A DNA stretch of 64,000 nt from Deltaproteobacteria bacterium (GTDB lineage: Bacteria > Desulfobacterota > GWC2-55-46): assembly GCA_016177845.1 (NCBI GenBank), contig JACOUO010000011.1, forward strand, positions 128,326 to 192,325, given 5' to 3'. Both the position numbers and the translations under genes were made by a program. The notes under the pieces were generated by a model. The model was not told where the DNA came from and made no database searches. It worked only from the letters and a program-made list of their open reading frames with translations. Position 1 is the stretch's first letter. The number at the start of each line of letters is the position of its first letter. This document shows, piece by piece, positions 31,627-59,404 of this stretch.

Positions 31627-32400
31627 TCAGAGCTTTCTGAACTGGCGCATGATAAGCGTTGAAAGGAATATCAGGGAGCTTATCAGGATAAAGACAGGCC
31701 CCGGTGAAAGTGAATAGGTGTGCGAGAAGTATATCCCGAAAACCGCTGCTATCACTCCAAAGAATACGCTCCCTGCCATAAAAGCGGTAAGGCTTCTTGC
31801 GATATTTTTTGCTGAAGCTGCCGGGATTATGACAAGAGAGCCCATCAGAAGCGCCCCTACAAAGCGAATCCCCAAGGCGACCGCAAGTGCGAAGCTTAAG
31901 AGGAAAATGAACTCCAGCCTTTTATTATTTATCCCAATGGACTGGGCTATCTCCTGGGAAACCATGTTCAGCGTAAGTTTTTTATAGATTGAAAGAATAG
32001 CGGCTATGAGTATTGCCGAGAGCAGGATTGAGGCCAGTGACTCCTGAATAGTGAGGTCGGTGATATTGCCGAAAAGCGCTTCAATCAGGTCGTGCTCAGG
32101 CATTATGAGCGCACCTATGGCAAGGCTTGCCGTAAAGAATACGCCTACAATGGTCTCAAGAGAAAGCGAACTCCTGTACTCTATAATCCAGATGCCGCAG
32201 ACAGTGAATACAAGAAAGCTTATGGCCCCGATAAAGGGGTCGAATTTGAAAAGTATGGCAAGGGCCATTCCGGGCAATGCCACATGGGAGAGCGCGTCGC
32301 CGACAAGGGCCATCCTCTTTAAAATGGCAAACGAGCCGAGAAGGCTCGCGCTTGCCGCCACAAAGGCGGCAACTATCAAGGGCAGTATTATATCTTGCAT
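31627..32400 (-). CDS. znuB: Metal (Zn/Mn) ABC transporter permease, ZnuB/MntB-like
   Basis: 257 aa, ...LGSFAILKRMALVGDALSHVALPGMALA..., ABC-3 family. Confidence 0.85.
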   Translation of the reverse strand: MQDIILPLIVAAFVAASASLLGSFAILKRMALVGDALSHVALPGMALAILFKFDPFIGAISFLVFTVCGIWIIEYRSSLSLETIVGVFFTASLAIGALIMPEHDLIEALFGNITDLTIQESLASILLSAILIAAILSIYKKLTLNMVSQEIAQSIGINNKRLEFIFLLSFALAVALGIRFVGALLMGSLVIIPAASAKNIARSLTAFMAGSVFFGVIAAVFGIYFSHTYSLSPGPVFILISSLIFLSTLIMRQFRKL

Positions 32401-32401
32401 G

Positions 32402-33133
32402 TTATGTTTTGTGGTTGTGCTGGAAAAACGCTTTTTCTCCGCCGTAAAGCGCCATGAGCTGCTCTGTGCTCAGCACATCCTTCGGAGAGCCGAAGCAGAG
32501 ATTTTTCCTGTTTATGCAAAGTACCGTTGCCGCATGCCTGTAGACGACATTGAGGTCATGGGAGACGAGGATAATGGTAAGCCCAAGGTTCTTCTGAAGA
32601 TGGTAGAGCATCTTGTAGATTGATTCCTGGCCGGCAATGTCTATGTCAGCCGTAGGCTCATCAAAGAGGAGGACATCAGGGGTGCTGAGCACTGCCCAGG
32701 CCACAAGGACCCTTTGCCTCTGTCCTATTGATATCTCGCCAAAGCCCTTCTTCAATATTTTTGGCTCAAGCTGGACAAACTCCAGAACCTCGGCAATCTT
32801 CTTGTCCGTAGCAGATATCCCTCGTAAATGGAAGAATTCCTTTACCGTAAGAGGCACATCGGTCTCTATATCCATCCTCTGAGGCACATATCCTGTTTTG
32901 ATGCCGCGCTGCCAGCTGATTGTGCCTTTATAAGGCACAAGCCCTATAAGTGTCTTTAAAAGCACGGTCTTGCCTGCCCCGTTAGGGCCTATAATGGCAA
33001 GCACCTCGCTTTTATTGACATCGAAATTAAGGTCTTCGAGTATCCTGTTCCCGTTGATCTCTATATTAAGATTTTTGACTTCAAGTATTTTCATGGAATT
33101 TTTAAATATGCAATATTCCCGGCTGCCGGTCAA
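32402..33133 (-). CDS. znuC: Metal ABC transporter ATP-binding protein, ZnuC-like
   Basis: 243 aa with Walker A GPNGAGKT, signature ISIGQRQRV and Walker B LLFDEP. Confidence 0.85.
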   Translation of the reverse strand: MTGSREYCIFKNSMKILEVKNLNIEINGNRILEDLNFDVNKSEVLAIIGPNGAGKTVLLKTLIGLVPYKGTISWQRGIKTGYVPQRMDIETDVPLTVKEFFHLRGISATDKKIAEVLEFVQLEPKILKKGFGEISIGQRQRVLVAWAVLSTPDVLLFDEPTADIDIAGQESIYKMLYHLQKNLGLTIILVSHDLNVVYRHAATVLCINRKNLCFGSPKDVLSTEQLMALYGGEKAFFQHNHKT

Positions 33134-33445: not shown

Positions 33446-34600
33446 ATGAAAATCAAAGTTTGGGATATACCGACCCGTATGTTCCACTGGCTTCTTGTGG
33501 GTGCATACATCGGCGCTTTTTTTACATCTGAGAGCGAATGGTACCTTGAATATCATACCGTCGCGGGCTATATAGCTTTTGGTCTTGTAAGTTTCCGTAT
33601 TCTTTGGGGTTTCAGCGGTAATAAATACGCTCGTTTTTCGGATTTTGTAAAGGGATGGGCCCCTGTTAAGGACTATATAGCCAAAACAGCCCGTCTAAAG
33701 CCGCCGAGGTATCTTGGGCATAATCCTGCCGTAGGCTGGGTCGTTCTTTTCATGCTTTTACTGACCGCTGCCATTACAGTATCAGGCATTATTACCTATT
33801 CCGGGGAAGAGGGCAGGGGCATTTTCTCTTCCTATTTCAGCTATGAGACAGCCGTTTATGCCGAAACGGTCCATCTCTTCCTGACAAAATTTGTTATACT
33901 GATGATAGTGGTGCATGTCTGCGCCGCTCTCTTTCATGATTTTATTTTAAAGGAAAACATAATACTGTCCATGGTAACCGGCACAAAGGAAGATGCCGAG
34001 TCATGGCAGGAGAGGGTGTCGCACCTTAAGCCCGATGAAGGGCGCTCAGCCTTAAGGCTTGGGGTATGGGTCTTTGTCGCCGTGATGGGCGGGCTTGGGC
34101 TTATTTACCTCCCACCCGAAGGGGAAAAAAGCGCCTCCGAGCTTGGGCCGCCTAAGATTATAGATGAAAAAGGCGTTTCAGTGGAATTTACGCCCAATGA
34201 GACATGGAAGGCTGAATGCGCCGCATCATGCCATAACGCATTCCACCCGACACTGCTCCCGGCCCGGTCGTGGAATAAGCTCTCTGAAGGCTTAAGCGAC
34301 CACTTCGGGGATGATGTTACCCTTGACGATGATACAAAAAAGGAGATTTTCGATTACCTTATGGCCTCTTCAGCCGAGCATTCGACCTCAGAGGCTTCGA
34401 CAAAGATACTGCGCTCAATAAAAAAGGGTGATGTTCCGATAAGGATTACTGAGGTGCCGTACTGGAAGGTGAAACATTCTGAAATTAAAGAAGAGGTCTT
34501 CGCCAAAAAGTCTGTTGTAAGCAAAAGTAATTGCGTGGCCTGCCATCCTGGTTCCGAGGTAGGCTCATTCGAAGATAAAGATATACGAATTCCGAATTAA
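33446..34600 (+). CDS. Cytochrome b561 (Ni/Fe-hydrogenase b-type, PF01292-like) fused to a C-terminal periplasmic diheme cytochrome c (DHC) domain
   Basis: The N-terminal 4-TM cyt b carries conserved His residues (MFHWLLVGAY...YHTVAGY...HLFLTKF...HVCAALFHDF). The C-terminal domain has heme motifs CAASCH (a CX3CH variant) and CVACH, and is ~45% identical to the DHC protein at 35069. Confidence 0.8.
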   Translation: MKIKVWDIPTRMFHWLLVGAYIGAFFTSESEWYLEYHTVAGYIAFGLVSFRILWGFSGNKYARFSDFVKGWAPVKDYIAKTARLKPPRYLGHNPAVGWVVLFMLLLTAAITVSGIITYSGEEGRGIFSSYFSYETAVYAETVHLFLTKFVILMIVVHVCAALFHDFILKENIILSMVTGTKEDAESWQERVSHLKPDEGRSALRLGVWVFVAVMGGLGLIYLPPEGEKSASELGPPKIIDEKGVSVEFTPNETWKAECAASCHNAFHPTLLPARSWNKLSEGLSDHFGDDVTLDDDTKKEIFDYLMASSAEHSTSEASTKILRSIKKGDVPIRITEVPYWKVKHSEIKEEVFAKKSVVSKSNCVACHPGSEVGSFEDKDIRIPN

Positions 34601-34614
34601 AAAGGGAGGTTTCA

Positions 34615-35043
34615 ATGAGGAGGAAAATATCTTACCTGCTGGCGCTTGCCGTTTCCATAACTGCTATTGGGACTGGCAGCGCTGATGCAGCCACAAAGCT
34701 CAATCCGCAGATGCAGGCGCTTGTGGATTCATACCAGAAGGAAGCAGGGGTAAAGGCATTCAGCGCAGACGAAGGTAAGAAATTGTTCATGTCAAAGAGA
34801 ATGCACTCGGTAAAGAAAGAGGAGCGCTCATGTACGACATGCCATACTACTAATCCTGCCCAGACAGGCAAGACCGTAGTCGGCAAACCCATTGACCCGA
34901 TTTCCCCTGCGGTTACAAAAGACAGGTTCACGGACCCTAAAAAGGTCGAGAAGTGGTTTAAGAGGAACTGTGAGTGGGTGCTTGAGAGGGAATGCACGCC
35001 CAAGGAAAAGGGCGATTACATTACATTTATGACATCATTATAA
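34615..35043 (+). CDS. DUF1924-family periplasmic mono-heme cytochrome c
   Basis: 142 aa with a signal peptide and a single CTTCH motif. A Trp/Lys-rich C-terminus is as in PF09086 proteins that are genomically coupled to cyt b561 and DHC. Confidence 0.75.
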   Translation: MRRKISYLLALAVSITAIGTGSADAATKLNPQMQALVDSYQKEAGVKAFSADEGKKLFMSKRMHSVKKEERSCTTCHTTNPAQTGKTVVGKPIDPISPAVTKDRFTDPKKVEKWFKRNCEWVLERECTPKEKGDYITFMTSL

Positions 35044-35068
35044 TTATGTAATCTGAAAGGAGACGGAG

Positions 35069-35611
35069 ATGGTACTCAGAAAGACGATAATACCCTTTTT
35101 AGCGGCAGGGTTAATGTTAACCGGGCTTGTCGCAGGCACCGGGTTTGCCGATGAAGATCACAGAGAGAGAGGTGAGAGGCATAGCAGGTATATGCCCAAA
35201 GTCGCTGAAAACGCTACTTACAAACAGGAGTGCTCATCCTGCCATTTCCTTTATCTGCCGGGGCTGCTGCCTGCCCGTTCATGGGAAGCGGTAATGAATA
35301 ACTCCGATAAGCACTTTGGCGAGAACCTTGGGCTTGATGAGAATACCAAAAAGGAGATTACTTCCTTCCTTAAGAATAATTCGGCTGAAAGGACCGATAC
35401 AGAGTGGTCTAATAAGATAATGAGGAGTGTTGGTTCGGCTACCCCGGAGAGGATTACCGAAGTGCCCTGGATAAAAAAGGAGCACAGAAGGATTAAACCT
35501 GAGGTATTCCAGAGGCCTTCCATAGGAAGCTTCTCAAACTGCGGCGCATGCCATACGCAGGGCGCACAGGGAAATTTTGAGGAAGACGCGGTTTCAATCC
35601 CGAAGAAATAA
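35069..35611 (+). CDS. Diheme cytochrome c (DHC family)
   Basis: 180 aa with a signal peptide and two CXXCH motifs (CSSCH, CGACH), paralogous to the C-terminal domain of the preceding b561 fusion. Confidence 0.8.
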   Translation: MVLRKTIIPFLAAGLMLTGLVAGTGFADEDHRERGERHSRYMPKVAENATYKQECSSCHFLYLPGLLPARSWEAVMNNSDKHFGENLGLDENTKKEITSFLKNNSAERTDTEWSNKIMRSVGSATPERITEVPWIKKEHRRIKPEVFQRPSIGSFSNCGACHTQGAQGNFEEDAVSIPKK

Positions 35612-35637
35612 TCTGCTAATATTTAAATTATGGAAGC

Positions 35638-35770
35638 TCTGATTAATTCTCGTTTCTGCTGTCATTGCGAGAAGTGAAACGACGAAGCAATCGCTAACTG
35701 CTTGATTTACCTGAAAACGAGATTGCTTCGCTGCGCTCGCAAAGACTACTCAATGAATTAATCAGAGGTT
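35638..35770. repeat. MITE-like palindromic element with 13-bp terminal inverted repeats (CTCTGATTAATTC / GAATTAATCAGAG) and an internal GTCATTGCGAG...GAAGCAATC palindrome
   Basis: The terminal inverted repeats (TIRs) are read directly. The internal palindrome GTCATTGCGAG-N-GAAGCAATCG / CGAGATTGCTTCG-N-CTCGCAA belongs to the same family as the repeats at 39011-39516. Confidence 0.5.
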
Positions 35771-35790
35771 CCAAGGGGTTGCCCTTTTTT

Positions 35791-36513
35791 TTAAGTAAGT
35801 TTCTTAAGTATTGCCACCTTTATGCCTGTATTTTCAAAATGCGGCAGGAGTATTAAAGGGTTTTCTTTCCTTGTATAGAACTTCGGGTCCTTGGAGAAGA
35901 ATATATCACCTTTGACCTTGGGTTCGGGCTCATCTACAGGGGTGTAGTGAACCGGTATGAATAGAGCAGGGCTTATCACTTTTACCGCCTTTATTATTTC
36001 TTTTGTGTCGATTGCATAGGCGTTATCGCATATCGGAAGTATCGCTACATCCACCCCCTTAAGGGCTTCCATCTCAGCTATGTTGGTAGTATCTCCCGAA
36101 AAGTATATCTTCTGAGTGCCTGTTTCGATAAGGAATCCGCAGCCTTCGCCTTTCATGTGAAACCCTCTTGGCGTATACGCCTCGGTGCCTGTTACCTTTG
36201 CCTGTCCGAAGTCAACGGTCTGCCCTACCTTTATAGTCCTTACTCCTTTTATGTCCTGAACGCAGTATTTTAAATAGCTCTCGTGAAATGCCGCTACCTT
36301 TGTGTTTTCATCCCTTATCGGGCTTATGAACTCCGGCAGGCAGTGGTCAACATGGTGGTGTGTTATAAGGACGAGATCAGCCCTTGGCGGATTGGCGTCA
36401 AGCATGACAGGGTCCGTATAGATAATGTAGCCGTCAGCGGTTGTGATGCGCATTGTGGATTGCCCAAGCCACTCATATTTTATGCCGTTAAAAACGATGC
36501 TTTTGTCTTCCAT
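35791..36513 (-). CDS. MBL-fold metallo-hydrolase
   Basis: 240 aa with an HHHVDHC metal-binding motif. Confidence 0.8.
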   Translation of the reverse strand: MEDKSIVFNGIKYEWLGQSTMRITTADGYIIYTDPVMLDANPPRADLVLITHHHVDHCLPEFISPIRDENTKVAAFHESYLKYCVQDIKGVRTIKVGQTVDFGQAKVTGTEAYTPRGFHMKGEGCGFLIETGTQKIYFSGDTTNIAEMEALKGVDVAILPICDNAYAIDTKEIIKAVKVISPALFIPVHYTPVDEPEPKVKGDIFFSKDPKFYTRKENPLILLPHFENTGIKVAILKKLT

Positions 36514-36708
36514 TCCTTTTTATCCTCCGGGCTATATAAAAGTAGAGTACCTTACGGGCAAATCACCAATTGAATCTTAACAGATGGAAAACCTTAAGCA
36601 AATGATAATTGTTAAAAAATATAAAAATTAAAAAATTGCAGTATAAACATACGGTTACGAAAAATTGACTTGATTTTAAATCGTTCAAAATGGTACTCCT
36701 ATGTACCT

Positions 36709-36740
36709 CTAATCTTCTTTTAATCTTCTGATTGTAAAAT
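36709..36740 (+). promoter_or_regulatory. Promoter with a direct-repeat operator (CTAATCTTC-TTT-TAATCTTC) 6 nt upstream of a TAAAAT -10 element, preceding tlpA-DUF4266-DUF3570
   Basis: Exact 20-mer copy of the element at 33170. Confidence 0.55.
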
Positions 36741-36778
36741 TGTCTGACGAACAACCATTAAAAGAGAGGTCTTAATCT

Positions 36779-37276
36779 ATGAGACTGAAAATAGCTTTGG
36801 CACTTATTTTCATGTTTTGTCTTGCTCCGCTTTCATGGGCAGGCATCACCAACCAAAAGGCTCCTGATTTCAACCTGCAGGACTTAAACGGCAAGACTGT
36901 TACCCTTGAGAGCCTCAAAGGCAAGGTCGTTTTCGTGGATTTCTGGGCAAGCTGGTGCCCTCCGTGCAAAAAGGAACTGCCTGAGCTCAATAAGCTTATG
37001 GATAAGTATAAAGACTCTGATGTTGTAGTGGCGGCGATAAATGTAGATAAGAACAAAGCGCAGGCTGCGGATTTTGTCTCAAAGGTGCCGAACCTTTCCA
37101 AAAAGATGGTTATCCTTCATGATGCCGATTCATTGGTTATCTCGGCTTACAAGGCTAAGGCAATGCCGACATCTTTCGTGCTCGATAAGAACGGTGTTAT
37201 ACGCTATGTGCATTTCGGATATCAGGAGACAGACCCGTTCGCGTGGGTGGATGAGATAAACAAGCTTTTGAAGTGA
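36779..37276 (+). CDS. TlpA/ResA-like periplasmic thiol:disulfide oxidoreductase (thioredoxin fold)
   Basis: 165 aa with a signal peptide and WASWCPPCKKELPEL active site. Confidence 0.85.
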   Translation: MRLKIALALIFMFCLAPLSWAGITNQKAPDFNLQDLNGKTVTLESLKGKVVFVDFWASWCPPCKKELPELNKLMDKYKDSDVVVAAINVDKNKAQAADFVSKVPNLSKKMVILHDADSLVISAYKAKAMPTSFVLDKNGVIRYVHFGYQETDPFAWVDEINKLLK

Positions 37277-37306
37277 TTCCCGGGCATGGTGCCCGAGGAC
37301 TTTTGA

Positions 37307-37546
37307 ATGAAAAAGGAGAGAAGAGCCGTGAAGACCGTATTTTGGGCATTGGCGCTTTGTTTGGTTTTGGGCGCGGCAACAGGATGCGCAAGGGTCAAGC
37401 CTTGGGAAAGGGAGTATCTGGCTAAACCCATAATGCAATATGATTACAACAAAGAAGAAAAAGCTGTCAGGGAGCATTTCCTGGGCACCCGTGAAGGCAG
37501 TGCCGGCAGCTTCGGCGTAAGCGGAGGTGGCTGTGGCTGCAATTAA
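37307..37546 (+). CDS. DUF4266-family small lipoprotein
   Basis: 79 aa with a lipobox LGAATGC and the family-typical C-terminus ...SFGVSGGGCGCN. Confidence 0.7.
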   Translation: MKKERRAVKTVFWALALCLVLGAATGCARVKPWEREYLAKPIMQYDYNKEEKAVREHFLGTREGSAGSFGVSGGGCGCN

Positions 37547-38687
37547 TCTCGTAAAAAGAAGCTTTCTGAAGACTGCTTTCGCAATTGCACTTGTTTCAGC
37601 CCCGTTTGCAACTCAGGCAAATGCTGAGGACTACGCTGCCGCGCAGACTTATTTTCATAGCTTCACCAATAATATCAGCGTCACCTCAGGCGTATTCGCA
37701 CTCAATAAAGATCTATCCATGGATACATCGGCCTATCTGAAATACTCGGTCGATGTAATCAATTCATCGGGCGATGACGAGGGGGGAACCGTAGTGTCCG
37801 GGGCCTCAAGCGCGGCTACCACCGGAGTTTCAGATACCCGTAATGATATTAATCTCGGTTTTACTCATAATTTTAAGAACATCATCGGCCTTGAAGCGTA
37901 CTACGATTACAGCAAAGAGACTGACTACACTTCAAAGACGCCGACAATAACCCTTAAAAAAGACCTTTTTGACAAGAATACGACTTTGTCGCTCGGCTAT
38001 TCGAGGAATGACGATGATATAAGCGGCAAATTTTTAGGCAATACCCAGACAAGGACAACCGATAACTTCTTCCTGGGCGTCACGCAGGTCATCTCCCCGG
38101 TAACTGTTGCCCAGATAGGTTATTCAAGGAGCAACTCAAGGGGCCAGATGTCGGAAGGCATCAGGCTGGTGCCTCTTAACGGGGTAGCCGCAAGCACCTG
38201 TACTGCCGAGTCAGCCACCTGCGTTGATGAAGCGCATCCGTCATCAAGGTATAGGGACGCATATATACTTGGCATCAACCACTATTTCCTCAACAGCCCA
38301 TATGAGTTCCTTGAGGAGTCATCGGTCAAGTTCACGCTACGTTATTACACTGACAGCTGGGATGTTGAGTCATACATGGCTGAGGCAGAGTGGAACAAGT
38401 ACCTTAACGACCGCTTGCTGCTAAGGCTTGATTACAGGTATTACACGCAGACAGCAGCGTATTTTGTAAAAGATATATACACTGCGTCCGATGAGTTCAA
38501 GTCATCTTCTCCTCAGCTTGTAAGCAAGGATACGCAGCTTGCAGGCGTAAAGCTTACTTATGAATTCGAGGAGGATGAATCCTCAGGCATCAGGCTCGGG
38601 TCAATTGAAGGCAAGTATGAAGCGTGGGCAGAATCAACAGATGTATATGCCCATATCATCATGGCCGCAGTAAGGTTCAACTTCTAA
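37527..38687 (+). CDS. DUF3570-family protein (predicted outer-membrane beta-barrel)
   Basis: 386 aa with a signal peptide, alternating beta-strand pattern and a C-terminal ...VRFNF. It is always paired with DUF4266 and overlaps it by 20 nt. Confidence 0.65.
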   Translation: MAVAAINLVKRSFLKTAFAIALVSAPFATQANAEDYAAAQTYFHSFTNNISVTSGVFALNKDLSMDTSAYLKYSVDVINSSGDDEGGTVVSGASSAATTGVSDTRNDINLGFTHNFKNIIGLEAYYDYSKETDYTSKTPTITLKKDLFDKNTTLSLGYSRNDDDISGKFLGNTQTRTTDNFFLGVTQVISPVTVAQIGYSRSNSRGQMSEGIRLVPLNGVAASTCTAESATCVDEAHPSSRYRDAYILGINHYFLNSPYEFLEESSVKFTLRYYTDSWDVESYMAEAEWNKYLNDRLLLRLDYRYYTQTAAYFVKDIYTASDEFKSSSPQLVSKDTQLAGVKLTYEFEEDESSGIRLGSIEGKYEAWAESTDVYAHIIMAAVRFNF

Positions 38688-38710
38688 AACTTTTCTATAT
38701 TTTTAAAAAG

Positions 38711-38745
38711 GGCTGCGGATAACTCCGCAGCCCTTTTTGATTATG
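38711..38745 (+). terminator. Rho-independent terminator after the DUF3570 gene
   Basis: GGGCTGCGGA-TAAC-TCCGCAGCCC followed by TTTTT. Confidence 0.8.
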
Positions 38746-39010
38746 TGGTCTGATTTTGTCTTTACAAAACCCCGAGGGCGTTAATGGTGCGGCAGCCACT
38801 AAGGGAGGAAGGGTGAGCGAGCCGGGGCTGCAGGAGCGTAGCGACTTAAGCTTTGAGGTGAACGGATTGGGGAGGAGCGGGGTTGCGCATCCATTCGCCC
38901 GAAAGAGTCCGGCATGGCGTTAAAGTTAAAACAGCACTGAACACTGATATTTTCTTTCCTTTATCCTGCTCTTTAAAGCTTTGTAGGGTGGGCTGTGCCC
39001 CTAATCAAGC

Positions 39011-39516
39011 TGTCATTCCCGAATGTCTCTGTCGGGAATTTACTTTTAAAAATACTGGATTCCCGCTTTCGCGGGAATGACAATTACTAAACTGTTATTG
39101 CGAACGAAGTGATGCAATCTGATCTGCCTCCAACTGAAAAATAGATTGCTTCGGGCTTAGCCCTCGCAATGACATTTACCCCTTCACCCAGCCCTCTCCC
39201 ACAAGGGGAGAGGGATAAACCGTTATTCCCGAATGTCTCTGTCGGGAATTTACTTTTAAAAATACTGGATTCCCGCTTTCGCGGGAATGACAATTACTAA
39301 ACTGTCATTGCGAACGAAGTGAAGCAATCTGATCTGCCTCCAACTGAAAAATAGATTGCTTCGGGCTTGGCCCTCGCAATGACATTTATCCCCTCAGCCA
39401 GCCCTCTCATTGCTATGCCGTTGTACCATTCAACCCTTGGCCCTCGCAATGAGATTTACCCCTTTACCCAGCCCTCTCCCACAAGAGGAGAGGGAGAAAA
39501 CCGCTGTCATTTACCT
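39011..39516. repeat. Tandem duplication (2.4 copies of a ~210-bp unit) composed of three nested palindromic sub-elements
   Basis: Unit 1 is 39011-39221, unit 2 is 39222-39431, and a partial third copy follows. Sub-elements are:
- GTCATTCCCGA-N-TCGGGAAT...ATTCCCGCTTTCGCGGGAATGAC;
- GTCATTGCGAACGAAGTGATGCAATCT...AGATTGCTTCGGGCTTAGCCCTCGCAATGAC;
- CCCTCTCCCACAAGGGGAGAGGG.
The copies are ~95% identical. Confidence 0.8.
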
Positions 39517-39562
39517 ATTCTCCGTATTTTTTTACAAGACCCCCTTTGATTCATTATCACCT

Positions 39563-39594
39563 CTAATTTTCCCTTAATCTTGAATTCGTATAAT
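39563..39594 (+). promoter_or_regulatory. Promoter with a direct-repeat operator variant (CTAATTTTC-CCT-TAATCTTG) 6 nt upstream of a TATAAT -10 element
   Basis: Third copy of the TAATCTTC direct-repeat architecture. It drives a 28-aa peptide ORF. Confidence 0.5.
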
Positions 39595-39642
39595 GGAGTC
39601 ATGTAACGGAACAAAATCCGGTCTTTAAAAGGAGGCTCTGTA

Positions 39643-39729
39643 ATGGAAAACAGGATGAATGAAATCTTTGACATAATTGCCAATCTTGCCGTTGTGATAG
39701 TAATCGTATCAGCGGTCATCATATCCTAA
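39643..39729 (+). CDS. Small hydrophobic peptide (28 aa) in its own promoter-SD-ORF-terminator unit
   Basis: MENRMNEIFDIIANLAVVIVIVSAVIIS, with an SD AAGGAGG 7 nt upstream. A strong terminator follows at 39768-39802. It is paralogous to the peptide at 33268. Confidence 0.4.
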   Translation: MENRMNEIFDIIANLAVVIVIVSAVIIS

Positions 39730-39767
39730 ATCATCCGCATTAAAATCCCGCTCCCCAACCCACCTTC

Positions 39768-39802
39768 AAGGGAGGCCTTTTGGGCCTCCCTTGTCTTTTT
39801 TT
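39768..39802 (+). terminator. Rho-independent terminator
   Basis: AAGGGAGGCC-TTTT-GGGCCTCCCTT followed by GTCTTTTTTT. Confidence 0.8.
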
Positions 39803-39853
39803 GAGATAAACTAAAAAATTGATATGGATACCCGATTTTGTTATTCTTTAAAA

Positions 39854-40843
39854 ATGCGTAAAACATTCCTTTTGTTCCTGACCCTTTTCATATTCATCTC
39901 TTCAAATCCTGCATATGCGGGCAGCTTTAAAAAGAGTACCGTTGTAATGGGTACAGACCTTGAGATGAATCTCGTTGCCGAAGATGAGACGGCTGTCAAC
40001 GCTGCCTTCGATAAGGTTGTCGCAGAGATGAACCGTATCGAAAATGTGATGAGCGAATGGAGGGAAGGCACCAAGGTCTCTGAGATAAACAGGAATGCCG
40101 GGATAAAGCCGGTAGAGGTCACGGAAGAACTTTTTAATCTGATATCAGCTTCCATTCAGGTCTCTGAACTTACGGAAGGGGCTTTTGATATTTCATGGGC
40201 ATCCATGAGGGGGGTGTGGAGCTTTGCAAAGGGGAGCGAGAGGCTTCCCACAGCAGAAGAGATAAAAGAAAGGCTGCCGCTCGTCAATTATAAAAACATA
40301 GAGCTTGATAATGAGAAAAAGACCGTTTACCTCAAGACCAAAGGCATGGCAATCGGCCTTGGAGCAATAGCAAAGGGGTACGCTGTAGACAAGGCTGCCC
40401 AGATACTTTTCAATTCAGGCGTAAGGAACTTTGTGATAAAGGCAGGCGGAGACATGCGCGTCCAAGGCGCTCAGGAGAATGGCAAGCCCTGGCCAATAGG
40501 TATCCGCCATCCGAGGGACAGGGAAAAGTTTATAGCAAAGCTTCATCTTACAAACATCTCGATATCCACCTCAGGCGATTATGAAAGGTTTTTCATCAGG
40601 GACGGCGTCCTTTACCATCATATAATGGACCCCAAAACAGGCTATCCCGCGCGCGGCAGCCAGAGCGTGACCATTATTGCCCATGACACAATGACCTCTG
40701 ACGCCTTCTCAACCGCAATCTTTGTGCTCGGGCCTGAAAAAGGCCTTAAACTTATCAGTAAACTTAAGGGCATTGAAGCTGTTATTGTGGATGACACCGG
40801 TAAGATCAGCGGCTCATCAGGCGTGGATATAAGAACCAAATAA
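39854..40843 (+). CDS. apbE: ApbE-family FAD:protein FMN transferase (periplasmic lipoprotein/secreted)
   Basis: ApbE hallmarks: ...VMGTDLEMNLVAED..., ...GLGAIAKGYAVDKAA..., ...ISTSGDYERFF.... Start chosen at MRKTFLLFLTLFIFISSNPAYAG, a signal peptide. The six-frame ORF begins 30 nt earlier at 39824. Confidence 0.8.
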   Translation: MRKTFLLFLTLFIFISSNPAYAGSFKKSTVVMGTDLEMNLVAEDETAVNAAFDKVVAEMNRIENVMSEWREGTKVSEINRNAGIKPVEVTEELFNLISASIQVSELTEGAFDISWASMRGVWSFAKGSERLPTAEEIKERLPLVNYKNIELDNEKKTVYLKTKGMAIGLGAIAKGYAVDKAAQILFNSGVRNFVIKAGGDMRVQGAQENGKPWPIGIRHPRDREKFIAKLHLTNISISTSGDYERFFIRDGVLYHHIMDPKTGYPARGSQSVTIIAHDTMTSDAFSTAIFVLGPEKGLKLISKLKGIEAVIVDDTGKISGSSGVDIRTK

Positions 40844-40942
40844 TCTTTAGCTGTCCTAATTATTCCTATCGTACCCTCTTGACAAATCCTTTGTTCGTCT
40901 GTATTATAGTAAGCACTTACTTACCTTTTAGGCTGAGAATCT

Positions 40943-41590
40943 ATGTATAAAGAATCCCGTAAAATGCCAAAATCCGCAGAAGACTCCAAAAAGAGGATGT
41001 CGGGTGAGCAGCGCAAGGCGCAGATAGTAACTGTTGCCATGCAGCTTTTTGCCGAAGAGGGATTTAAAGGCACTACGACCCGCGAAATAGCCCGCAGGGC
41101 GGGCATCAGCGAGGCTGTCATATTCAAGCATTTCTCCAAAAAAGAAGACCTGTATAATGCAATAATAGACCAGTGCTGTAATGACGGCGGCGGGGAATCG
41201 AGACTACTTAAACTCCTTAAGCAGAAACAAGGGAGGGAAGTGTTCAGCGAAGTAGCAATGTTTCTCATAACAGAGCATCAGAACGATTCCACCTTTTTAA
41301 AGCTACTTACCTATAGCGCGCTGGAGAAACACACACTTTCGGATATATTTATAAAGACCAAGGCAATGGAGCTGATCGAGTTCCTTGTATCCCATATAAA
41401 ATCCCTTATGGATGAAGGCGTATTCAGAAAGGCTGACCATGAGCTTGCGGCCCGCGCCTTCCTCGGCATGGTGCTTCATTTCAATATTGCCCAGGAGCTA
41501 TACGGCCTTAAAAAGACCTTCAAGAGGCAGAACAGTGATGTTGTCGATACATTCGTTGATATTTTCTTTGATGGAATGAAGAGGAGGTAA
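40943..41590 (+). CDS. TetR/AcrR-family transcriptional regulator
   Basis: 215 aa with an N-terminal HTH ...LFAEEGFKGTTTREIARRAGISEAVIFKHF. It lies upstream of the RND efflux operon. Confidence 0.85.
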   Translation: MYKESRKMPKSAEDSKKRMSGEQRKAQIVTVAMQLFAEEGFKGTTTREIARRAGISEAVIFKHFSKKEDLYNAIIDQCCNDGGGESRLLKLLKQKQGREVFSEVAMFLITEHQNDSTFLKLLTYSALEKHTLSDIFIKTKAMELIEFLVSHIKSLMDEGVFRKADHELAARAFLGMVLHFNIAQELYGLKKTFKRQNSDVVDTFVDIFFDGMKRR

Positions 41591-41591
41591 G

Positions 41592-42956
41592 ATGCGAAAA
41601 ACAGTTCCAAAGACATTGTGTTTGGCACAAGATCACCGGGGGAGCTTTGTTTATCTTCTCTTTTTATCAGCTCTTGTAATGGCTATTTTAATAAGTTCGC
41701 CTCTTTTCGCGCAGGACAGGGTAATAACCCTTGATGAGGCATATAAGACCGCGGTTGACAACCACGAAGCGGTAAAGATTGCAGGTGAGGCGGTCTCTCA
41801 GGCACAGAGCAACCTTGATAAGACTACCGCAAGGATACTTCCGAACCTGACAGTGGAAGGCACATACACAAGATATAACGAACAGAAGTCCTCTGGCAGT
41901 TTCGTCACACAGCCTGAAGACAACTCCAAGGTCGATATAAGGGTCACTCAGCCGCTTTATACGGGCGGCAGGGAGTGGGCAAACAGAAGGCAGGCCAGAG
42001 CCCTCATAGAAAAGTCAAAAGAGGGAGTTGAACTTTCTACTGAAAATGTCCTTCGCGCAACCGCTCGCGCGTATTTCGGACTTCTCAAGGCCCAAAAGGA
42101 TGTGGAGATAAAAGATGCCGCTCTCAAAAGGGCTGATGAGAGAAGAAAGGTAGCTGACGCAAGATTCAAGGTAGGCGAAGTAACAAGGTCTGCGGTCCTT
42201 AGGGCTGAGGCAGAGTTGGCAGGAGCAGAGGCAGAGCTTATCACCTCAAAAAGCAATCTTTTGGATGCCCGCAATAACCTTAAAAGAATTTTAGGCGTAA
42301 CAGAGGACTTTGCCGTAGTTGAGCCTGCCCAGCATGGCTCTGTAGAAGGCGATACAGAGACGCTCGTAAAACGCGCGCTTGATTCAAGGAATGATTATAA
42401 GCAGAGCATACTTGATCAGAGGGTAGCATCCGAAGGCATCACCTTTGCCAAAGGCAATTTCTATCCGCAGCTTAAATTAGAGGGACTTTATTCGTGGAGG
42501 GACCAGAATCCTCAGACGACTTTTTTTCAGGAGGACAGCCTCTCCGCTTCCCTCATACTTACTTATCCTATATTTGAAGGCGGGTTAAGGAGGGCTGAAG
42601 TAGCGGAGGCAAGGAGTAAATTCAGGGAAGCCGAGTTCAGGAAGCTGGGCTTAAGAAGAGATATTGAAATAGAAGTAAGGGACGCCATAAACAATGTTGA
42701 ATCCTTCAGGGCTGTCATAGATTCATTCACCAAGCAGGTCTCTTTTGCCGAGGAGGACTACAGGATGGTATTTGAGCAGTTCAAGTTCGGCATTGCAACA
42801 ACAGTAGAGGTCATTGATTCCGATACTACACTTGTGCAGGCTCAGAGGTCATTGGCAAATGCCGCTTACGACCTGCAGTTATCAATTATTGAATTAAAGT
42901 ACAGGCTTGGGATACTTGCGCAGGACGCAGGTTTTACAGAAAAAAGCCCTAAATAG
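41592..42956 (+). CDS. TolC-like outer-membrane efflux protein (OMF)
   Basis: 454 aa with a signal peptide and two OEP repeats. Confidence 0.85.
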   Translation: MRKTVPKTLCLAQDHRGSFVYLLFLSALVMAILISSPLFAQDRVITLDEAYKTAVDNHEAVKIAGEAVSQAQSNLDKTTARILPNLTVEGTYTRYNEQKSSGSFVTQPEDNSKVDIRVTQPLYTGGREWANRRQARALIEKSKEGVELSTENVLRATARAYFGLLKAQKDVEIKDAALKRADERRKVADARFKVGEVTRSAVLRAEAELAGAEAELITSKSNLLDARNNLKRILGVTEDFAVVEPAQHGSVEGDTETLVKRALDSRNDYKQSILDQRVASEGITFAKGNFYPQLKLEGLYSWRDQNPQTTFFQEDSLSASLILTYPIFEGGLRRAEVAEARSKFREAEFRKLGLRRDIEIEVRDAINNVESFRAVIDSFTKQVSFAEEDYRMVFEQFKFGIATTVEVIDSDTTLVQAQRSLANAAYDLQLSIIELKYRLGILAQDAGFTEKSPK

Positions 42957-42969
42957 CAGGAGCAAATTG

Positions 42970-44124
42970 ATGAAAATTAAAAATAAGACCATCTTTCCGA
43001 TTCTGGCCGCGCTGATAATTGCCGCAGCCGGTTGTTCAAAGAAAGAAGCCCCGAAAAAGCCTGAAGGCGCGGCAGCGGCAAAGCCCTCCACTGCGCAGAT
43101 AATGGATGTAAAGACAGTTGTCGTTGAGGCGCGCACGGTTGACAGGAGCGTAGAGGCAACAGGCACTCTTCTTCCCTGGGATGAGTCAATAGTAAGCAGT
43201 GAGGTGCACGGCACCATTGATAAGATTTCAGCCGACCTCGGGGACAGGGTAAAGGCAGGGCAGACACTTGCCATCCTTGACCAGAGGGAGATGAAGATAA
43301 ACCACGCGGACGCCGAGGCAGCCTACAAGACCAGCGTAAAGGCGTTGGAGAGGGAGAAGGCAAGGCTTTCGGATGCAGCTACAACCCTGAAGAGGTACGA
43401 AGAATTGTTCAAGCAGGGCATGGTTGCGGCAAGCCAGTACGACAATGCCCGCACCTCTTATGATGTAGCGCAGGCGCAGGTGAATGAGGCTGAGGCAAAG
43501 GTCGAGCAATCTCTCGCAAAGCTGAACTTCGCTGAAAAGCGCCTTGCCGATATCACAATCAAATCCCCTCTTACAGGCGAGATCAAGAAGAGGAATGTAT
43601 CCACAGGTGAGAGTGTAGAGATAGGTAAGCCCCTGTTTACAGTTGTGTCCACAGGCACGCTTAAGTTTCGCGGAACCATTGCCGAGGCCTCTGTCCCGGA
43701 TGTAAAGGCAGGCCAGCAGGTGCTTATAAATGTAGAGGCTTTCAAGGACAAGGTGTTCAAGGGTCAGGTCACAAGGATAAGCCCTGCCGTAGATATGCAG
43801 ACAAGGACCCTTGAGATAGAGGCCTCAGTGCCTAATCCGCAGGGTGTGCTGAAACCGGGTTTTTTCGCCAGAGGTATGATACTCACCAGGAAAGAGGCAA
43901 ATGTGCCTTTTGTGCCTGAGAGCGCTGTTTATACATTCGTAGGCATCACAAAGGTATTTGTAATAAACAATAATACTGCCGCTGAAAGGCTCGTTAAAAC
44001 CGGCGTAAGGCAAAACGACATGGTCGAGATAATCGATAAGATAAAACCCGGCGACACGGTAGCTACAACTAACCTTTCAAATATTTTTGACGGCGCGAAA
44101 GTCAATATCCTAACCAATAAATAG
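42970..44124 (+). CDS. RND efflux periplasmic adaptor (MFP/HlyD family) lipoprotein
   Basis: Lipobox AAAGC, with biotinyl-lipoyl-like, coiled-coil and beta-barrel domains. Start at MKIKNKTIFPILAAL. The six-frame ORF starts at 42907. Confidence 0.85.
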   Translation: MKIKNKTIFPILAALIIAAAGCSKKEAPKKPEGAAAAKPSTAQIMDVKTVVVEARTVDRSVEATGTLLPWDESIVSSEVHGTIDKISADLGDRVKAGQTLAILDQREMKINHADAEAAYKTSVKALEREKARLSDAATTLKRYEELFKQGMVAASQYDNARTSYDVAQAQVNEAEAKVEQSLAKLNFAEKRLADITIKSPLTGEIKKRNVSTGESVEIGKPLFTVVSTGTLKFRGTIAEASVPDVKAGQQVLINVEAFKDKVFKGQVTRISPAVDMQTRTLEIEASVPNPQGVLKPGFFARGMILTRKEANVPFVPESAVYTFVGITKVFVINNNTAAERLVKTGVRQNDMVEIIDKIKPGDTVATTNLSNIFDGAKVNILTNK

Positions 44125-44131
44125 GGCTGAT

Positions 44132-56252: not shown

Positions 56253-57365
56253 ATGAAAGCACTGCTTTGGAACAAGGATAATGGCTCATTTGTATTTTCT
56301 GATTTTCCTGAGCCGCATATCACTGAGCCTGATGAGGTCAAGGCGCGTGTGATAAGTGTCGGCGTGTGCGGCACTGACAGGGAGGTCTTTGCCCAAAAAG
56401 GGTATCTGCCTCCTGAAGGCAGACATGACCTTATAATCGGGCATGAATCACTGGCTGAGGTGGTTGAGGTAGGAGCAGATGTGAAGGGCCTAAGGACAGG
56501 CGATTATGTGACCTTTACCGTCCGCAGGGGCTGTGACAGGTGCATCCCTTGCAGGACAGGGCGGCCTGATATGTGCGCGACAGGCGGCTATAAAGAGCGC
56601 GGGCTTGATTATATGGACGGTTTCAGCTCTGAGTTCGTAGTCGATAGCCAGATAAACTGCATAAAAGTACCTGTTGAATTGAGAAATCTTGGAGTCCTTT
56701 GCGAGCCCCTTTCGGCAATAGAAAAGGCGCTTCAGGAGATAGAAAGGGCACAGGAGCGTCTGCCTGAGTCAATAACGGAAGTCAATTGGTTCCAGGGCAG
56801 AAGGTGCCTGATTTTGGGGCTCGGCACTATAGGTCTTCTGGCCTCAGTCGCCCTTACTCTAAGGGGGGCTTCTGTTTACGGGCTCGATATAGTGGATGAG
56901 AGCAGCTCAAGGCCTGTCTGGTTCAAAGGCATCGGCGGGCAATATATAAATGAGAAAAAAACGAGATTGGAAAACCTCACCGGGCTTGCAGGCGGCAATT
57001 TCGGGCTGATATTTCAGGCTGCGGGGGTCCCTGATATTTCACTTGAACTGCTTAAAACACTCGGCTCTAACGGGGCGTTCGTATTTTTCTCCGCCGGAGG
57101 CAAAGGCAATATATCAGTAGCAGGAGGCGAGCTGATAAGAAACATCATCGATAATAACCAGACCATTATCGGGGCTGTCAGTTCTTCAAGGGCGCACTTC
57201 GAGCTTGCGGTAAGAGACCTGCAGGCCTCACAACTTAGATGGGGAAGGCATATGGACGGATTGATAACCCATTGCTACCATCCTTCAGAATTAGGGGAGG
57301 TGATAAAAACACACCCGCCTGATGAGATAAAGGCAGTGATTGACTGGAGCGCGCTCAGGAGTTAA
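56253..57365 (+). CDS. Zinc-dependent medium-chain dehydrogenase/reductase (glucose/threonine dehydrogenase-like)
   Basis: 370 aa. ...GVCGTDREVF...GHESLAEVVEVG... contains the catalytic Zn ligands. It also has a Rossmann GLGTIGL motif. Confidence 0.75.
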   Translation: MKALLWNKDNGSFVFSDFPEPHITEPDEVKARVISVGVCGTDREVFAQKGYLPPEGRHDLIIGHESLAEVVEVGADVKGLRTGDYVTFTVRRGCDRCIPCRTGRPDMCATGGYKERGLDYMDGFSSEFVVDSQINCIKVPVELRNLGVLCEPLSAIEKALQEIERAQERLPESITEVNWFQGRRCLILGLGTIGLLASVALTLRGASVYGLDIVDESSSRPVWFKGIGGQYINEKKTRLENLTGLAGGNFGLIFQAAGVPDISLELLKTLGSNGAFVFFSAGGKGNISVAGGELIRNIIDNNQTIIGAVSSSRAHFELAVRDLQASQLRWGRHMDGLITHCYHPSELGEVIKTHPPDEIKAVIDWSALRS

Positions 57366-58756
57366 TCGCTGTTCTTCTTCAGTGATTTTACCGTAATATA
57401 TCCTGCGACAAAAAAGGCGAGGGGAGTTACCGAGAGCAGATTCCTGTTTGTAGCCATGCGGTTTAAGACAAATTCAAAATCGAATGTAGCTGTGTAAACA
57501 AAAAGATATCCCGATATCGCAAGCACGATTATCAAAAAAAGATATTTGATATTGGTATTAAGGAGCGTCTTAAAACCGAGGACAGAGACAAGGGCGAGAA
57601 AAGCAAAGATAAGCCCGTGGTCAACGCTTAAAAATAATTCCCTGAAAAATACGGGCCAGACCTCAAAGTGAAATGTCGGGCTCCACATGAGCGCGCCTGA
57701 TTCGTCAGCCCCTCCTATGCCTGTGCCGTAGCCATGCCCGAACCCAAGCCCGTAATGGCTTTTAAAGATAAACCACGGAAGAAGATACAAAAGGGCCGGC
57801 AGGCCGAAATAAATGAGCCCCTTCCATTTGTATTTCTTCTCAATGACATTAAACGCAAGCAGGGCCAAGCCTGCTGAGAGCAGATGTATCATGCCGTCGC
57901 TTTTGGTAAAACCGGCCATGGCAAAGAAAAGCCCTGAAAGAGGAAGTAAGTTCATCTCATCATGTTCCATGTATCTGAAAAGCAATATGGAACCCGCAAG
58001 GACATTGTACGATAGCGCAAGGTCTGAGTATGCCTCAAAGGAATGGAAGATGAGCAGGGGAGCGGCAGAGACGAAGAAAACGGCGATGAGACCTGCCAAA
58101 AGCCCGCCTTCTTTTTTTATGGCGGTAAAGATTAGCCCGAAAACGCTGATTAAATACAGAGGGGCCCATGCTTTCATAAGGCTTTCATGAAATTCGCCTA
58201 AAAATTCAGATATCCATATCTGGTGCATGAATGTAAGCAGGGGATACCCGAGAATGACCCTGTAGCCTTTACCGAAGAAGTGCTCATCAGCCGGGTCGTC
58301 AATCATCAGGCCTTGATTGTAGTAAAAGAGCTTTGCGCTCCTGTTCCACCATGAGTCCTGCGACATAACAGGCCTGTTGAAGCCTTCGTAAAGGACAATG
58401 GAGACCCTGAAGGCAATCCACGCGATAAGCAGTATTATCAGGATATTTGCGTACATGTCTCGTTTTTCAGAAGGGTTTTTTACTGTATTTTCATGACTTC
58501 CGCGGTACAGGAAGTTCAATATCAACAGTATTGCAAGCGTTACTCCAAGCAGTACCAGTGTAGCCTGAAAAGAATACGGGATACCGAATGCGCCCTGGCA
58601 GAAAAGGCCGAGCGAAAGTATGCCAAAGCCCATCCCGTAGCCTATGAAAATTTTTTCGGCAAGGCTCTGGTCACGCCTTGCGTTCAGAAGCGAGACGAGC
58701 AAAAAGCCCGCGAGGGTCGGAAAGACAAGGGCTGCTGTCAGTTTTATCCACAACAT
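57362..58756 (-). CDS. Polytopic membrane protein of unknown function (possibly GT-C-like)
   Basis: 464 aa with >=11 predicted TM helices. It is co-oriented and contiguous with two further membrane-protein genes. Confidence 0.45.
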   Translation of the reverse strand: MLWIKLTAALVFPTLAGFLLVSLLNARRDQSLAEKIFIGYGMGFGILSLGLFCQGAFGIPYSFQATLVLLGVTLAILLILNFLYRGSHENTVKNPSEKRDMYANILIILLIAWIAFRVSIVLYEGFNRPVMSQDSWWNRSAKLFYYNQGLMIDDPADEHFFGKGYRVILGYPLLTFMHQIWISEFLGEFHESLMKAWAPLYLISVFGLIFTAIKKEGGLLAGLIAVFFVSAAPLLIFHSFEAYSDLALSYNVLAGSILLFRYMEHDEMNLLPLSGLFFAMAGFTKSDGMIHLLSAGLALLAFNVIEKKYKWKGLIYFGLPALLYLLPWFIFKSHYGLGFGHGYGTGIGGADESGALMWSPTFHFEVWPVFFRELFLSVDHGLIFAFLALVSVLGFKTLLNTNIKYLFLIIVLAISGYLFVYTATFDFEFVLNRMATNRNLLSVTPLAFFVAGYITVKSLKKNSD

Positions 58757-59404
58757 CTAATTATCATCCATTATTTTGAATATGTATGCCCCGCTCCTGT
58801 AAGTTGCAAAGAGGCGGGCTTTGAAAACTGAATCGTTCACCCGTAAAATGTTTGTCTCAGGGTCGTACGAAGCGACTGAAAAATCATATACCCAGATGTA
58901 TCTGCCTTTGTTGGATATCATTTTTGGCAGGAGATAATAATTCCCAAGTTTCGTAAGGGTGTGGCTTAAGTCCCACGGGTCTATTTTAATCTCTCTTACC
59001 TGTTCACCTTCGGGGACTGTCTTTCTTACAAAGTCCATGAAATATTTCAGGTCAAAACCTGAAGAGGCGGCAATCCTTTCGTCAATATCCTTGCCGGAAA
59101 ACATCTTTACATCTTTTTTAAACATGGTAAGCCAGTTAAGGTCCATCCTGAGCCCGAAGAGAACACCTGCGAGCATGAATGATACAATGGCGCATTTTGC
59201 GAAATTCTGCTTTGAAAATTGCCTTTTTATAAGAATGGCGGCAATGAAGATCAAAGCCGCTACGGTGAATATGAGTAATGTAAAAGTTATCGGATTGGAA
59301 AGCGGGGGAGAAATATAGTTTATCGTAGAGCCCTTGATGAACTTGGTGTCCCAGAACTCTTGCCAAAGCCCCTGGAATTGAGTGGAGGAAAGTGTTTGCA
59401 GCAT
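58757..59404 (-). CDS. Membrane-anchored hypothetical protein (2 TM + C-terminal soluble domain)
   Basis: 215 aa. No recognisable motifs. Its stop/start abuts the neighbouring membrane-protein genes. Confidence 0.4.
   Translation of the reverse strand: MLQTLSSTQFQGLWQEFWDTKFIKGSTINYISPPLSNPITFTLLIFTVAALIFIAAILIKRQFSKQNFAKCAIVSFMLAGVLFGLRMDLNWLTMFKKDVKMFSGKDIDERIAASSGFDLKYFMDFVRKTVPEGEQVREIKIDPWDLSHTLTKLGNYYLLPKMISNKGRYIWVYDFSVASYDPETNILRVNDSVFKARLFATYRSGAYIFKIMDDN

Follow-up and report, generated by a model that had tools for sequence, protein, structure and literature searches.

The locus examined here raises two questions: which protein receives flavin mononucleotide (FMN) from its flavin transferase, ApbE, and what the attached flavin might do. 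It lies in a 64,000-nucleotide (nt) stretch of contig JACOUO010000011.1 from a Deltaproteobacteria bacterium (the window), where four plus-strand genes encode a TlpA-type thioredoxin-like protein, DUF4266, DUF3570 and ApbE. The initial annotation had described a conserved but uncharacterised neighbourhood from which a canonical ApbE substrate was missing, and had guessed that one of its uncharacterised proteins could be what ApbE flavinylates. That guess was a good one, and the protein it leads to is DUF3570. We consider it likely that the locus is a DUF3570-type extracytosolic flavinylation system, in a variant without a DsbD gene nearby and with a thiol-to-flavin mechanism. The genes and sites concerned are given below, with DUF3570 residues numbered according to its 386-amino-acid (aa) open reading frame (ORF) as listed.

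36779 to 37276, plus strand: TlpA/ResA-type periplasmic thioredoxin-like protein, 165 aa (Pfam Redoxin, E = 3.5e-30; AhpC-TSA, E = 5e-30)
37307 to 37546, plus strand: DUF4266 small lipoprotein, 79 aa (PF14086, E = 2.6e-21; 76.7 bits against a cut-off of 27)
37527 to 38687, plus strand: DUF3570, predicted 16-stranded outer-membrane beta-barrel and predicted ApbE substrate, 386-aa ORF (PF12094, E = 7.6e-33)
37797 to 37808, plus strand: predicted flavinylation motif S91-G92-A93-S94, with FMN on Ser94, in the 21-residue connection between strands 3 and 4
38199 to 38222, plus strand: Cys pair C225-X6-C232, in the 33-residue connection between strands 9 and 10 (both Cys invariant in a 51-sequence alignment)
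39824 to 40843, plus strand: ApbE, FAD (flavin adenine dinucleotide):protein FMN transferase, 339 aa (PF02424, E = 3.2e-90)

Composition and precedent of the gene cluster

The Pfam scores of all four proteins were well over threshold, so that the families named in the initial annotation were correctly assigned, including those of the flanking TlpA-type and apbE genes and the three (PF14086, PF12094 and PF02424) for which it had proposed profile searches. The TlpA-type gene, placed just outside the start (37307) that had been given for the finding, ends 30 nt before the DUF4266 gene; the DUF4266 and DUF3570 ORFs overlap by 20 nt, an overlap also seen in relatives (e.g., L001), and 1,136 nt separate DUF3570 from apbE. 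In the window lineage, tlpA-DUF4266-DUF3570 is one tight operon. The true start of DUF3570 is probably the GTG at 37533, as indicated by a GGAGG at 37523 to 37527, by the N termini of homologs and by an independent gene call. The codons of the DUF4266 tail (37523 to 37546) thus double as the ribosome-binding site and start codon of DUF3570, and this sharing would make the two genes translationally coupled and place the tail DNA under dual constraint.

Related loci (n = 36) were collected by scanning a single genome for each species and came from metagenome-assembled genomes (MAGs) of uncultured Desulfobacterota, Nitrospirota, Nitrospinota and similar lineages. When the window proteins were mapped onto these loci, the order TlpA-DUF4266-DUF3570-ApbE on one strand was recovered in 31 of them, and the neighbourhood is therefore conserved, as had been supposed. 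Exceptions include L005 and L011, whose contigs end too early, and the degraded L036. The TlpA-type gene was directly upstream of DUF4266 in all of the 36 loci that carry that region. Real decay or assembly error was seen at two loci: TlpA and DUF3570 are frameshifted in L035 (1110 to 3031), and DUF4266 together with the first two-thirds of DUF3570 is gone from L036 (2797 to 4495).

The cluster was, contrary to the initial annotation, already described. Beginning from orphan apbE genes, Méheust et al. (2021, eLife 10:e66878; PMC8238504) found DUF3570 nearby and reported two conserved [S/T]GA[S/T] motifs in it. The DUF3570 of Chlorobium luteolum was flavinylated only when it was co-expressed with its cognate ApbE, and Ser-to-Ala changes at both motifs were needed to abolish its flavinylation. 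In that study, clusters around DsbD contained ApbE, DUF3570 (227), thioredoxin-like proteins (183) and DUF4266 (221), and a further 316 clusters had the same four genes without DsbD; attention was drawn to the C-terminal CXC of DUF4266, a hybrid thioredoxin-like/flavinylation relay was proposed, and a possible link to iron was suggested by VIT1 in 25 clusters. Both the gene cluster and the ApbE-DUF3570 substrate relation were thus published in 2021 and are not new. A literature search for DUF3570, PF12094 or a flavinylated beta-barrel returned nothing later than that paper. What is added here is the prediction of a barrel with a conserved polar lumen, a flexible flavin tether, a single site, the CX6C pair, a detached apbE and a small ORF. 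Since no DsbD_TM domain was found among the window ORFs of at least 150 aa, the window falls into the group of 316 published clusters without a co-localised DsbD. A Nitrospirae MAG (L025) has a DsbD_TM gene (PF02683, E = 6e-17) at 9120 to 9860, between DUF3570 and apbE, and this insertion connects the DsbD-type clusters already published with those that have no DsbD.

ApbE matched PF02424 with 302.7 bits over profile positions 1 to 266 of 266. A phmmer search against solved FMN transferases returned 7esa (E = 1.6e-56) and 4xdt (E = 8e-42), and the stretches GAIAKG, SG.YER, YHHI.DPKTGYP and D..ST were identical in the 7esa alignment. Against the NCBIfam equivalog for E. coli-type ApbE it scored 148 bits (cut-off, 498), which places it in a divergent subfamily that is still within the family. 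Its Sec signal peptide has the hydrophobic core FLLFLTLFIFISS and ends ...PAYA before GS; since there is no lipobox Cys, the protein is predicted to be periplasmic. The TlpA-type protein likewise has a signal peptide (ending ...LSWA before G), and its active site is W-C60-P-P-C63 (36956 to 36967). Its best NCBIfam matches were ResA and TlpA, both under the equivalog cut-offs, and only membership in the general TlpA/ResA family is therefore claimed.

The lipobox and the GGGCGCN tail reported earlier for DUF4266 are real. The lipobox reads ...AATG before C27 (Cys27 at 37385 to 37387), with Ala as the +2 residue, and the Gly-rich tail GGGCGCN (37523 to 37543) holds C76-G-C78. Across 42 homologs G26, C27, P-W-E, H57, T61-x-E-G and the terminal SGGGCGCN were invariant, and every locus ortholog had the GGGCGCN tail, at the C terminus in all except the frameshifted L035. 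Orthologs of DUF4266 were 65 to 90% identical, compared with about 50 to 60% for DUF3570. Under the E. coli rule, the Ala at +2 argues for sorting to the outer membrane. Modelled alone with AlphaFold2, DUF4266 (pLDDT 61) formed one helix (residues 47 to 62) and a disordered tail, a predicted disorder that fits a peptide folding on a partner. Dithiols of the C-G-C type close into a strained disulfide whose redox potential is fairly oxidising, and they have served to mimic protein disulfide isomerase.

DUF3570 as the predicted flavin acceptor

DUF3570 matched PF12094 with 114.4 bits (cut-off, 25), and the termini on which the initial annotation had relied were found to be real, with a signal peptide over residues 1 to 33 (ending ...QANA before ED) and the C terminus ...VRFNF. 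Homologs numbered 262 at E ≤ 1e-5, and a profile search of 1.84 billion representatives gave 2,289 PF12094-type family clusters at E ≤ 1e-3; a tblastn search of a plasmid collection for distant DUF3570 homologs gave no match. From an alignment of the window protein with 50 homologs (51 sequences), AlphaFold2 returned a model with 16 long strands (pLDDT 85; pTM 0.77), and Foldseek searches of the Protein Data Bank with this model matched only outer-membrane barrels (BcsC, OccK/OpdK, PgaA, AlgE and PelB; E about 1e-8, probability 1.0), in agreement with the earlier suggestion of an outer-membrane beta-barrel. In the model, the long connections all go from an odd to an even strand (21 aa between strands 3 and 4, 8 aa between 7 and 8, 33 aa between 9 and 10, and 25 aa between 13 and 14), a pattern that puts them on one side of the barrel. 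By the convention for outer-membrane proteins with a periplasmic C-terminal Phe beta-signal, this long-loop side is extracellular or plugs the lumen. Within the strands, conservation was 0.79 on polar faces versus 0.63 on apolar faces (Mann-Whitney p about 1e-6), and charged stripes such as DRDNGTN, GEYDSE, SKTRYD and LRDRYQ run along the polar faces; their better conservation suggests that the lumen is a constrained, functional surface. The Cys pair between strands 9 and 10, together with the insertion that holds it, was missing from most of the distant DUF3570 representatives, and on this comparison the pair is specific to the window's clade, a gain. No description of DUF3570 as an outer-membrane beta-barrel was found in the literature searched, including Méheust et al. 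2021.

The initial annotation was right that the window lacks a canonical ApbE substrate, as no FMN_bind, NqrC or RnfG domain was found among the ORFs of at least 150 aa in the 64 kb. It does not follow that the substrate is missing, because the DUF3570 of the cluster itself carries a conserved S91-G-A-S94 and belongs to a family in which flavinylation by ApbE was demonstrated for the C. luteolum member (PMC8238504). V-S91-G-A93-S94-S is the only [S/T]GA[S/T] motif in the window protein. Across the 51 sequences, from a clade that is otherwise about 50 to 60% identical, A93 and S94 were invariant and S91 was at least 90% conserved. In alignments with distant members of the family, the SGAS segment fell on the second of their tandem Dxx[ST]GA[ST] motifs, whereas the first motif position, where strand 3 ends, holds only the decayed form VD[VLF]IN in the window's clade; the window DUF3570 is therefore predicted to be a single-site variant. 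Single-motif members are not unusual in the family (49 of 131 full-length representatives). Among the best 150 of the 2,289 clusters, the canonical motif occurred one to three times per full-length protein and nearly always at residues 65 to 140, with a few lone matches downstream. About half of the more distant representatives were without a strict [ST]GA[ST], and several of the distant members aligned, which included P0150, P0156, P0173 and P0184, had D-A-[IV]-T-A-A-S or S-S-A-S at the motif positions. The segment that precedes SGAS is rich in Gly, Asp and Glu, and its length across homologs ranges between a few residues and about 60, which fits a flexible tether.

Two lines of evidence were set aside. 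A motif scan was dropped as stand-alone evidence, since the core motif occurred 4 times in the window ORFs compared with 1.6 expected by chance and the only strict [DS]xx[ST]GA[ST] match lay in a cytosolic hexapeptide-repeat transferase. Because the core motif is not rare, the case for flavinylation rests on conservation and on homology to a validated substrate. A scan of DUF3570, DUF4266 and the cytochromes with the strict pattern had been suggested initially. The window cytochromes had no such motif; the strict pattern would miss the DUF3570 site because its position -3 is Thr. A second segment, DDISGKF (residues 163 to 169, with D163 and G167 invariant), was considered as a degenerate second motif and was ruled out by the alignment of distant members, because the two or three motifs of the family are in tandem and all fall within the strand 3-4 connection or immediately ahead of it.

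The 1,136 nt between DUF3570 and apbE contain the following elements.

38705 to 38738, no strand assigned: hairpin with a perfect 15-bp stem (inverted repeat 100% complementary), a 4-nt loop and A-run/T-run flanks; intrinsic terminator of the bidirectional type
39007 to 39499, no strand assigned: repeat block found by repeat search, consisting of a 192-nt unit in tandem and three 64-nt copies, with internal hairpins of the REP (repetitive extragenic palindromic)/MITE (miniature inverted-repeat transposable element) type
39643 to 39729, plus strand: small unannotated ORF for a hydrophobic single-helix peptide of 28 aa, MENRMNEIFDIIANLAVVIVIVSAVIIS (from conservation and codon comparison)
39767 to 39793, plus strand: terminator-like hairpin, 12 pairs and a T-run, directly upstream of apbE (from a hairpin scan)

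The two 192-nt copies (39007 to 39198 and 39217 to 39408) are 95% identical, with a duplication period of 210 nt, and no other copy of the repeat block was found in the window. A short-read contig of the same sequence (L039) ends after DUF3570, just before this block. An Rfam scan of positions 36000 to 41500 gave no family above the gathering level; a CsrC match (2e-5; 27 bits against 61) was discarded as merely the terminator hairpin. The hairpin next to apbE is about 80% conserved at the equivalent position in L010, L016 and L037. The small ORF is preceded by a strong Shine-Dalgarno sequence, AAGGAGG, at a distance of 7 nt and by a TATAAT-like box at about 55 nt, and is followed by a terminator; its core, xIF[DE]xxANL...S...stop, recurred between DUF3570 and apbE in L008 (at about 2421), L009 (9396), L013 (9502), L024 (9297) and L028 (9405). 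Over 23 codons compared with L009, 4 were identical, 10 differed synonymously and 9 nonsynonymously (mostly conservative changes), and this abundance of synonymous changes indicates coding constraint. It gave no Pfam or NCBIfam match; judged by these comparisons, it is probably a real, unannotated gene for a hydrophobic peptide, and this conserved 28-aa membrane peptide may be a further unrecognised component of the system. Other relatives without the small ORF still have hairpins. The hairpins, the duplication and the small ORF in the gap suggest that apbE is probably a separate transcription unit here.

Several observations weigh against the proposed flavinylation system. Terminators separate apbE from DUF3570, and two of the 36 loci (L014 and L018) are without an apbE within 8 kb. 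The window DUF3570 keeps one of the two validated motif positions, the first reading VDVINSSG; its flavinylation is predicted, from homology and from the C. luteolum experiment; and the flavin loop was modelled with a pLDDT below 50, so that placement outside, in the lumen or in the periplasm would all be compatible. The two Cys of the CX6C pair may form a disulfide with no role beyond structure. No DsbD or CcdA is encoded in the 64-kb window, as judged by DsbD_TM among ORFs of at least 150 aa, and the thioredoxin-like partner is of the Redoxin/AhpC-TSA (TlpA/ResA-like) type here compared with PF13899 in the work of Méheust et al. Some of these points would also be expected if ApbE were a mere neighbour that mainly serves substrates encoded elsewhere (Rnf, Nqr, NosR, etc.) and the window DUF3570, with one motif lost, were not flavinylated; the terminator, the repeats and the separately promoted small ORF in the gap, the two loci without a nearby apbE, the decayed first motif and the frequency of the core motif in the window all speak for such an arrangement. 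We nevertheless regard it as very improbable, since apbE stays adjacent in 31 of the 36 loci despite a highly variable intergenic sequence, A93 and S94 are invariant in a clade that has otherwise diverged, and single-motif members are common across the family.

Electron supply, rival roles and neighbouring genes

For the flavinylation system favoured here, the following sequence of events is proposed. Periplasmic ApbE would use FAD to attach FMN through a phosphoester to Ser94 of DUF3570 (V-S-G-A-S94), a step supported by homology and by the published experiment on an ortholog. The FMN would then sit on the flexible tether in the strand 3-4 connection, beside the CX6C loop and on the side where the long loops lie, in a 16-stranded barrel with a conserved and charged lumen; this placement is drawn from structure prediction and conservation. 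Since ApbE is predicted to be periplasmic and the site to be on the long-loop side, modification would have to precede folding, and Ser94 would be modified on an unfolded periplasmic intermediate before the beta-barrel assembly machinery (BAM) inserts the barrel. The finding that a flavinylated DUF3570 construct without its signal peptide was mainly in the insoluble fraction (PMC8238504) agrees with action of ApbE on DUF3570 that is not natively folded. Thiol electrons might pass from a CcdA or DsbD encoded elsewhere to the CPPC of the TlpA-type protein, then to the CGC of DUF4266 and/or the CX6C pair, and from there to FMN, which would reduce an acceptor in or beyond the outer membrane.

An extended form of this proposal, which we put forward tentatively and with more doubt than conviction, is that DUF3570 acts as a flavinylated outer-membrane conduit: the FMN would swing on its tether inside or above the barrel, be fed by the CGC tail of DUF4266 entering from the periplasmic side and recharged by the TlpA-type protein, and deliver electrons to an extracellular acceptor. 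If so, there would be a haem-free route for electrons across the outer membrane, and ApbE would be required to modify the precursor of an outer-membrane protein before BAM assembly, that is, to attach a cofactor before the protein folds. The structural reading would make the role of a system present in hundreds of genomes testable, and the single-site, CX6C-bearing clade in groundwater Desulfobacterota would offer a convenient minimal model.

In the closest relatives, synteny extends beyond the cluster to a cytochrome b561-dihaem cytochrome c fusion, a DUF1924 cytochrome c, a dihaem cytochrome c and an opposite-strand metallo-beta-lactamase (MBL)-fold hydrolase, followed by the four genes and then by a TetR regulator, a TolC-like protein, a membrane fusion protein and an RND pump; L037 is a Pfam-annotated example. 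In the window, the opposite-strand MBL-fold gene closes the cytochrome block, and the block with this gene spans 33446 to 36513. The cytochrome genes form a possible associated module.

33446 to 34600, plus strand: cytochrome b561-dihaem cytochrome c fusion (Pfam; association unproven)
34615 to 35043, plus strand: DUF1924 cytochrome c (Pfam; association unproven)
35069 to 35611, plus strand: dihaem cytochrome c (Pfam; association unproven)

We considered the possibility that the barrel is fed by haem, with the b561-dihaem fusion taking electrons from the quinol pool, the periplasmic DUF1924 and dihaem c-type cytochromes carrying them to the flavinylated barrel, and the TlpA-type protein and DUF4266 serving maturation only, for example by keeping CXXCH or the barrel Cys residues reduced. 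In 16 of the 36 loci the cytochrome module accompanies the cluster in synteny, and the link survives in L021, where the module is downstream and inverted, and in L005, where the MBL gene is absent; cytochrome b561 is kept upstream in L017. Moreover, the best NCBIfam match of the TlpA-type protein is ResA, a cytochrome c maturation reductase, and a passage of Méheust et al. (PMC8238504) notes that flavins and cytochromes can be interchangeable. However, 20 loci have TlpA-DUF4266-DUF3570-ApbE without these cytochromes, and the synteny is limited to the closest relatives and so may merely reflect shared descent. An opposite-strand gene also stands between the cytochrome module and the cluster, whereas the TlpA-type, DUF4266 and DUF3570 genes are closely packed. 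Feeding by haem is thus quite unlikely.

The charged, conserved lumen and the resemblance of the barrel to substrate-specific channels (OccK) and exporters would also suit an uptake channel, in which DUF3570 is a pore and the tethered FMN an assimilatory metal reductase (e.g., Fe(III) to Fe(II)), with a role in metal acquisition and neither in respiration nor in extracellular electron transfer. L037 has a Fur-family regulator and a ZnuABC-type transporter directly upstream, and the window retains an ABC-3 permease and ATPase at 31627 to 33133. These metal ABC genes, however, are on the opposite strand and beyond the cytochrome module, there is no evidence of an iron transporter, a TonB component or a Fur box in the cluster, and the DUF3570 model yielded no pore size; we judge this role unlikely. 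The ZnuBC-type ABC-3 transporter of the window is without the ZnuA and Fur genes found at the same place in L037.

Other neighbours were recorded as well. Directly downstream of apbE, positions 40943 to 47239 encode a TetR regulator, a TolC-like outer-membrane factor, a membrane fusion protein and a 1035-aa RND pump, and the closest relatives have these genes in synteny with the cluster as well. In the upstream half of the window, positions 385 to 31623 hold two large clusters, namely a polysaccharide biosynthesis/export cluster (glycosyltransferases, DegT aminotransferase, Wzz, Poly_export and a BBP2_2 barrel) and a type II secretion system cluster (GspC/D/E/F/J/K/L-like). Two adjacent minus-strand ORFs of 464 and 215 aa (57362 to 59404) had no Pfam match at E ≤ 1e-3.

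Comparison with known systems

The window cluster shares with the DUF3570 clusters of Méheust et al. the same four families, a secreted DUF3570 with [S/T]GA[S/T] and a DUF4266 with a C-terminal CXC. It differs from them in keeping only the second motif, in its invariant and clade-specific CX6C loop, and in an apbE set off by terminators, a repeat block and a small ORF. The acceptor motif and the flavin transferase are also those of the FMN_bind domains of NqrC, RnfG and PplA, which are likewise extracytosolic; unlike those small soluble alpha/beta domains, however, DUF3570 is predicted to be a membrane beta-barrel, and its motif occupies a loop of low complexity and variable length, not a folded FMN pocket. 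The pathways from DsbD or CcdA to TlpA, ResA or CcmG similarly use a secreted thioredoxin-fold protein with WCPPC, and a DsbD_TM gene is present in the L025 cluster. The proposed client is nonetheless different, being a CGC lipopeptide together with a flavinylated barrel and neither an apocytochrome nor a copper chaperone, and the window itself is without DsbD.

The porin-cytochrome conduits, MtrCAB of Shewanella and Pcc of Geobacter, also combine an outer-membrane barrel, a covalent redox cofactor and a periplasm-facing partner, and such an arrangement could move electrons across the outer membrane. There is no sequence relationship and no specific fold relationship to DUF3570, which has 16 predicted strands compared with 26; DUF3570 would carry one FMN on the barrel itself, whereas the conduits thread a multihaem protein through the barrel; and the partner here, DUF4266, is a lipopeptide of 53 aa that bears a CGC dithiol. 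Any resemblance is hypothetical and would be functional only. If the flavinylated conduit proposed above is correct, it would represent a haem-free, thiol-to-flavin counterpart of the porin-cytochrome complexes.

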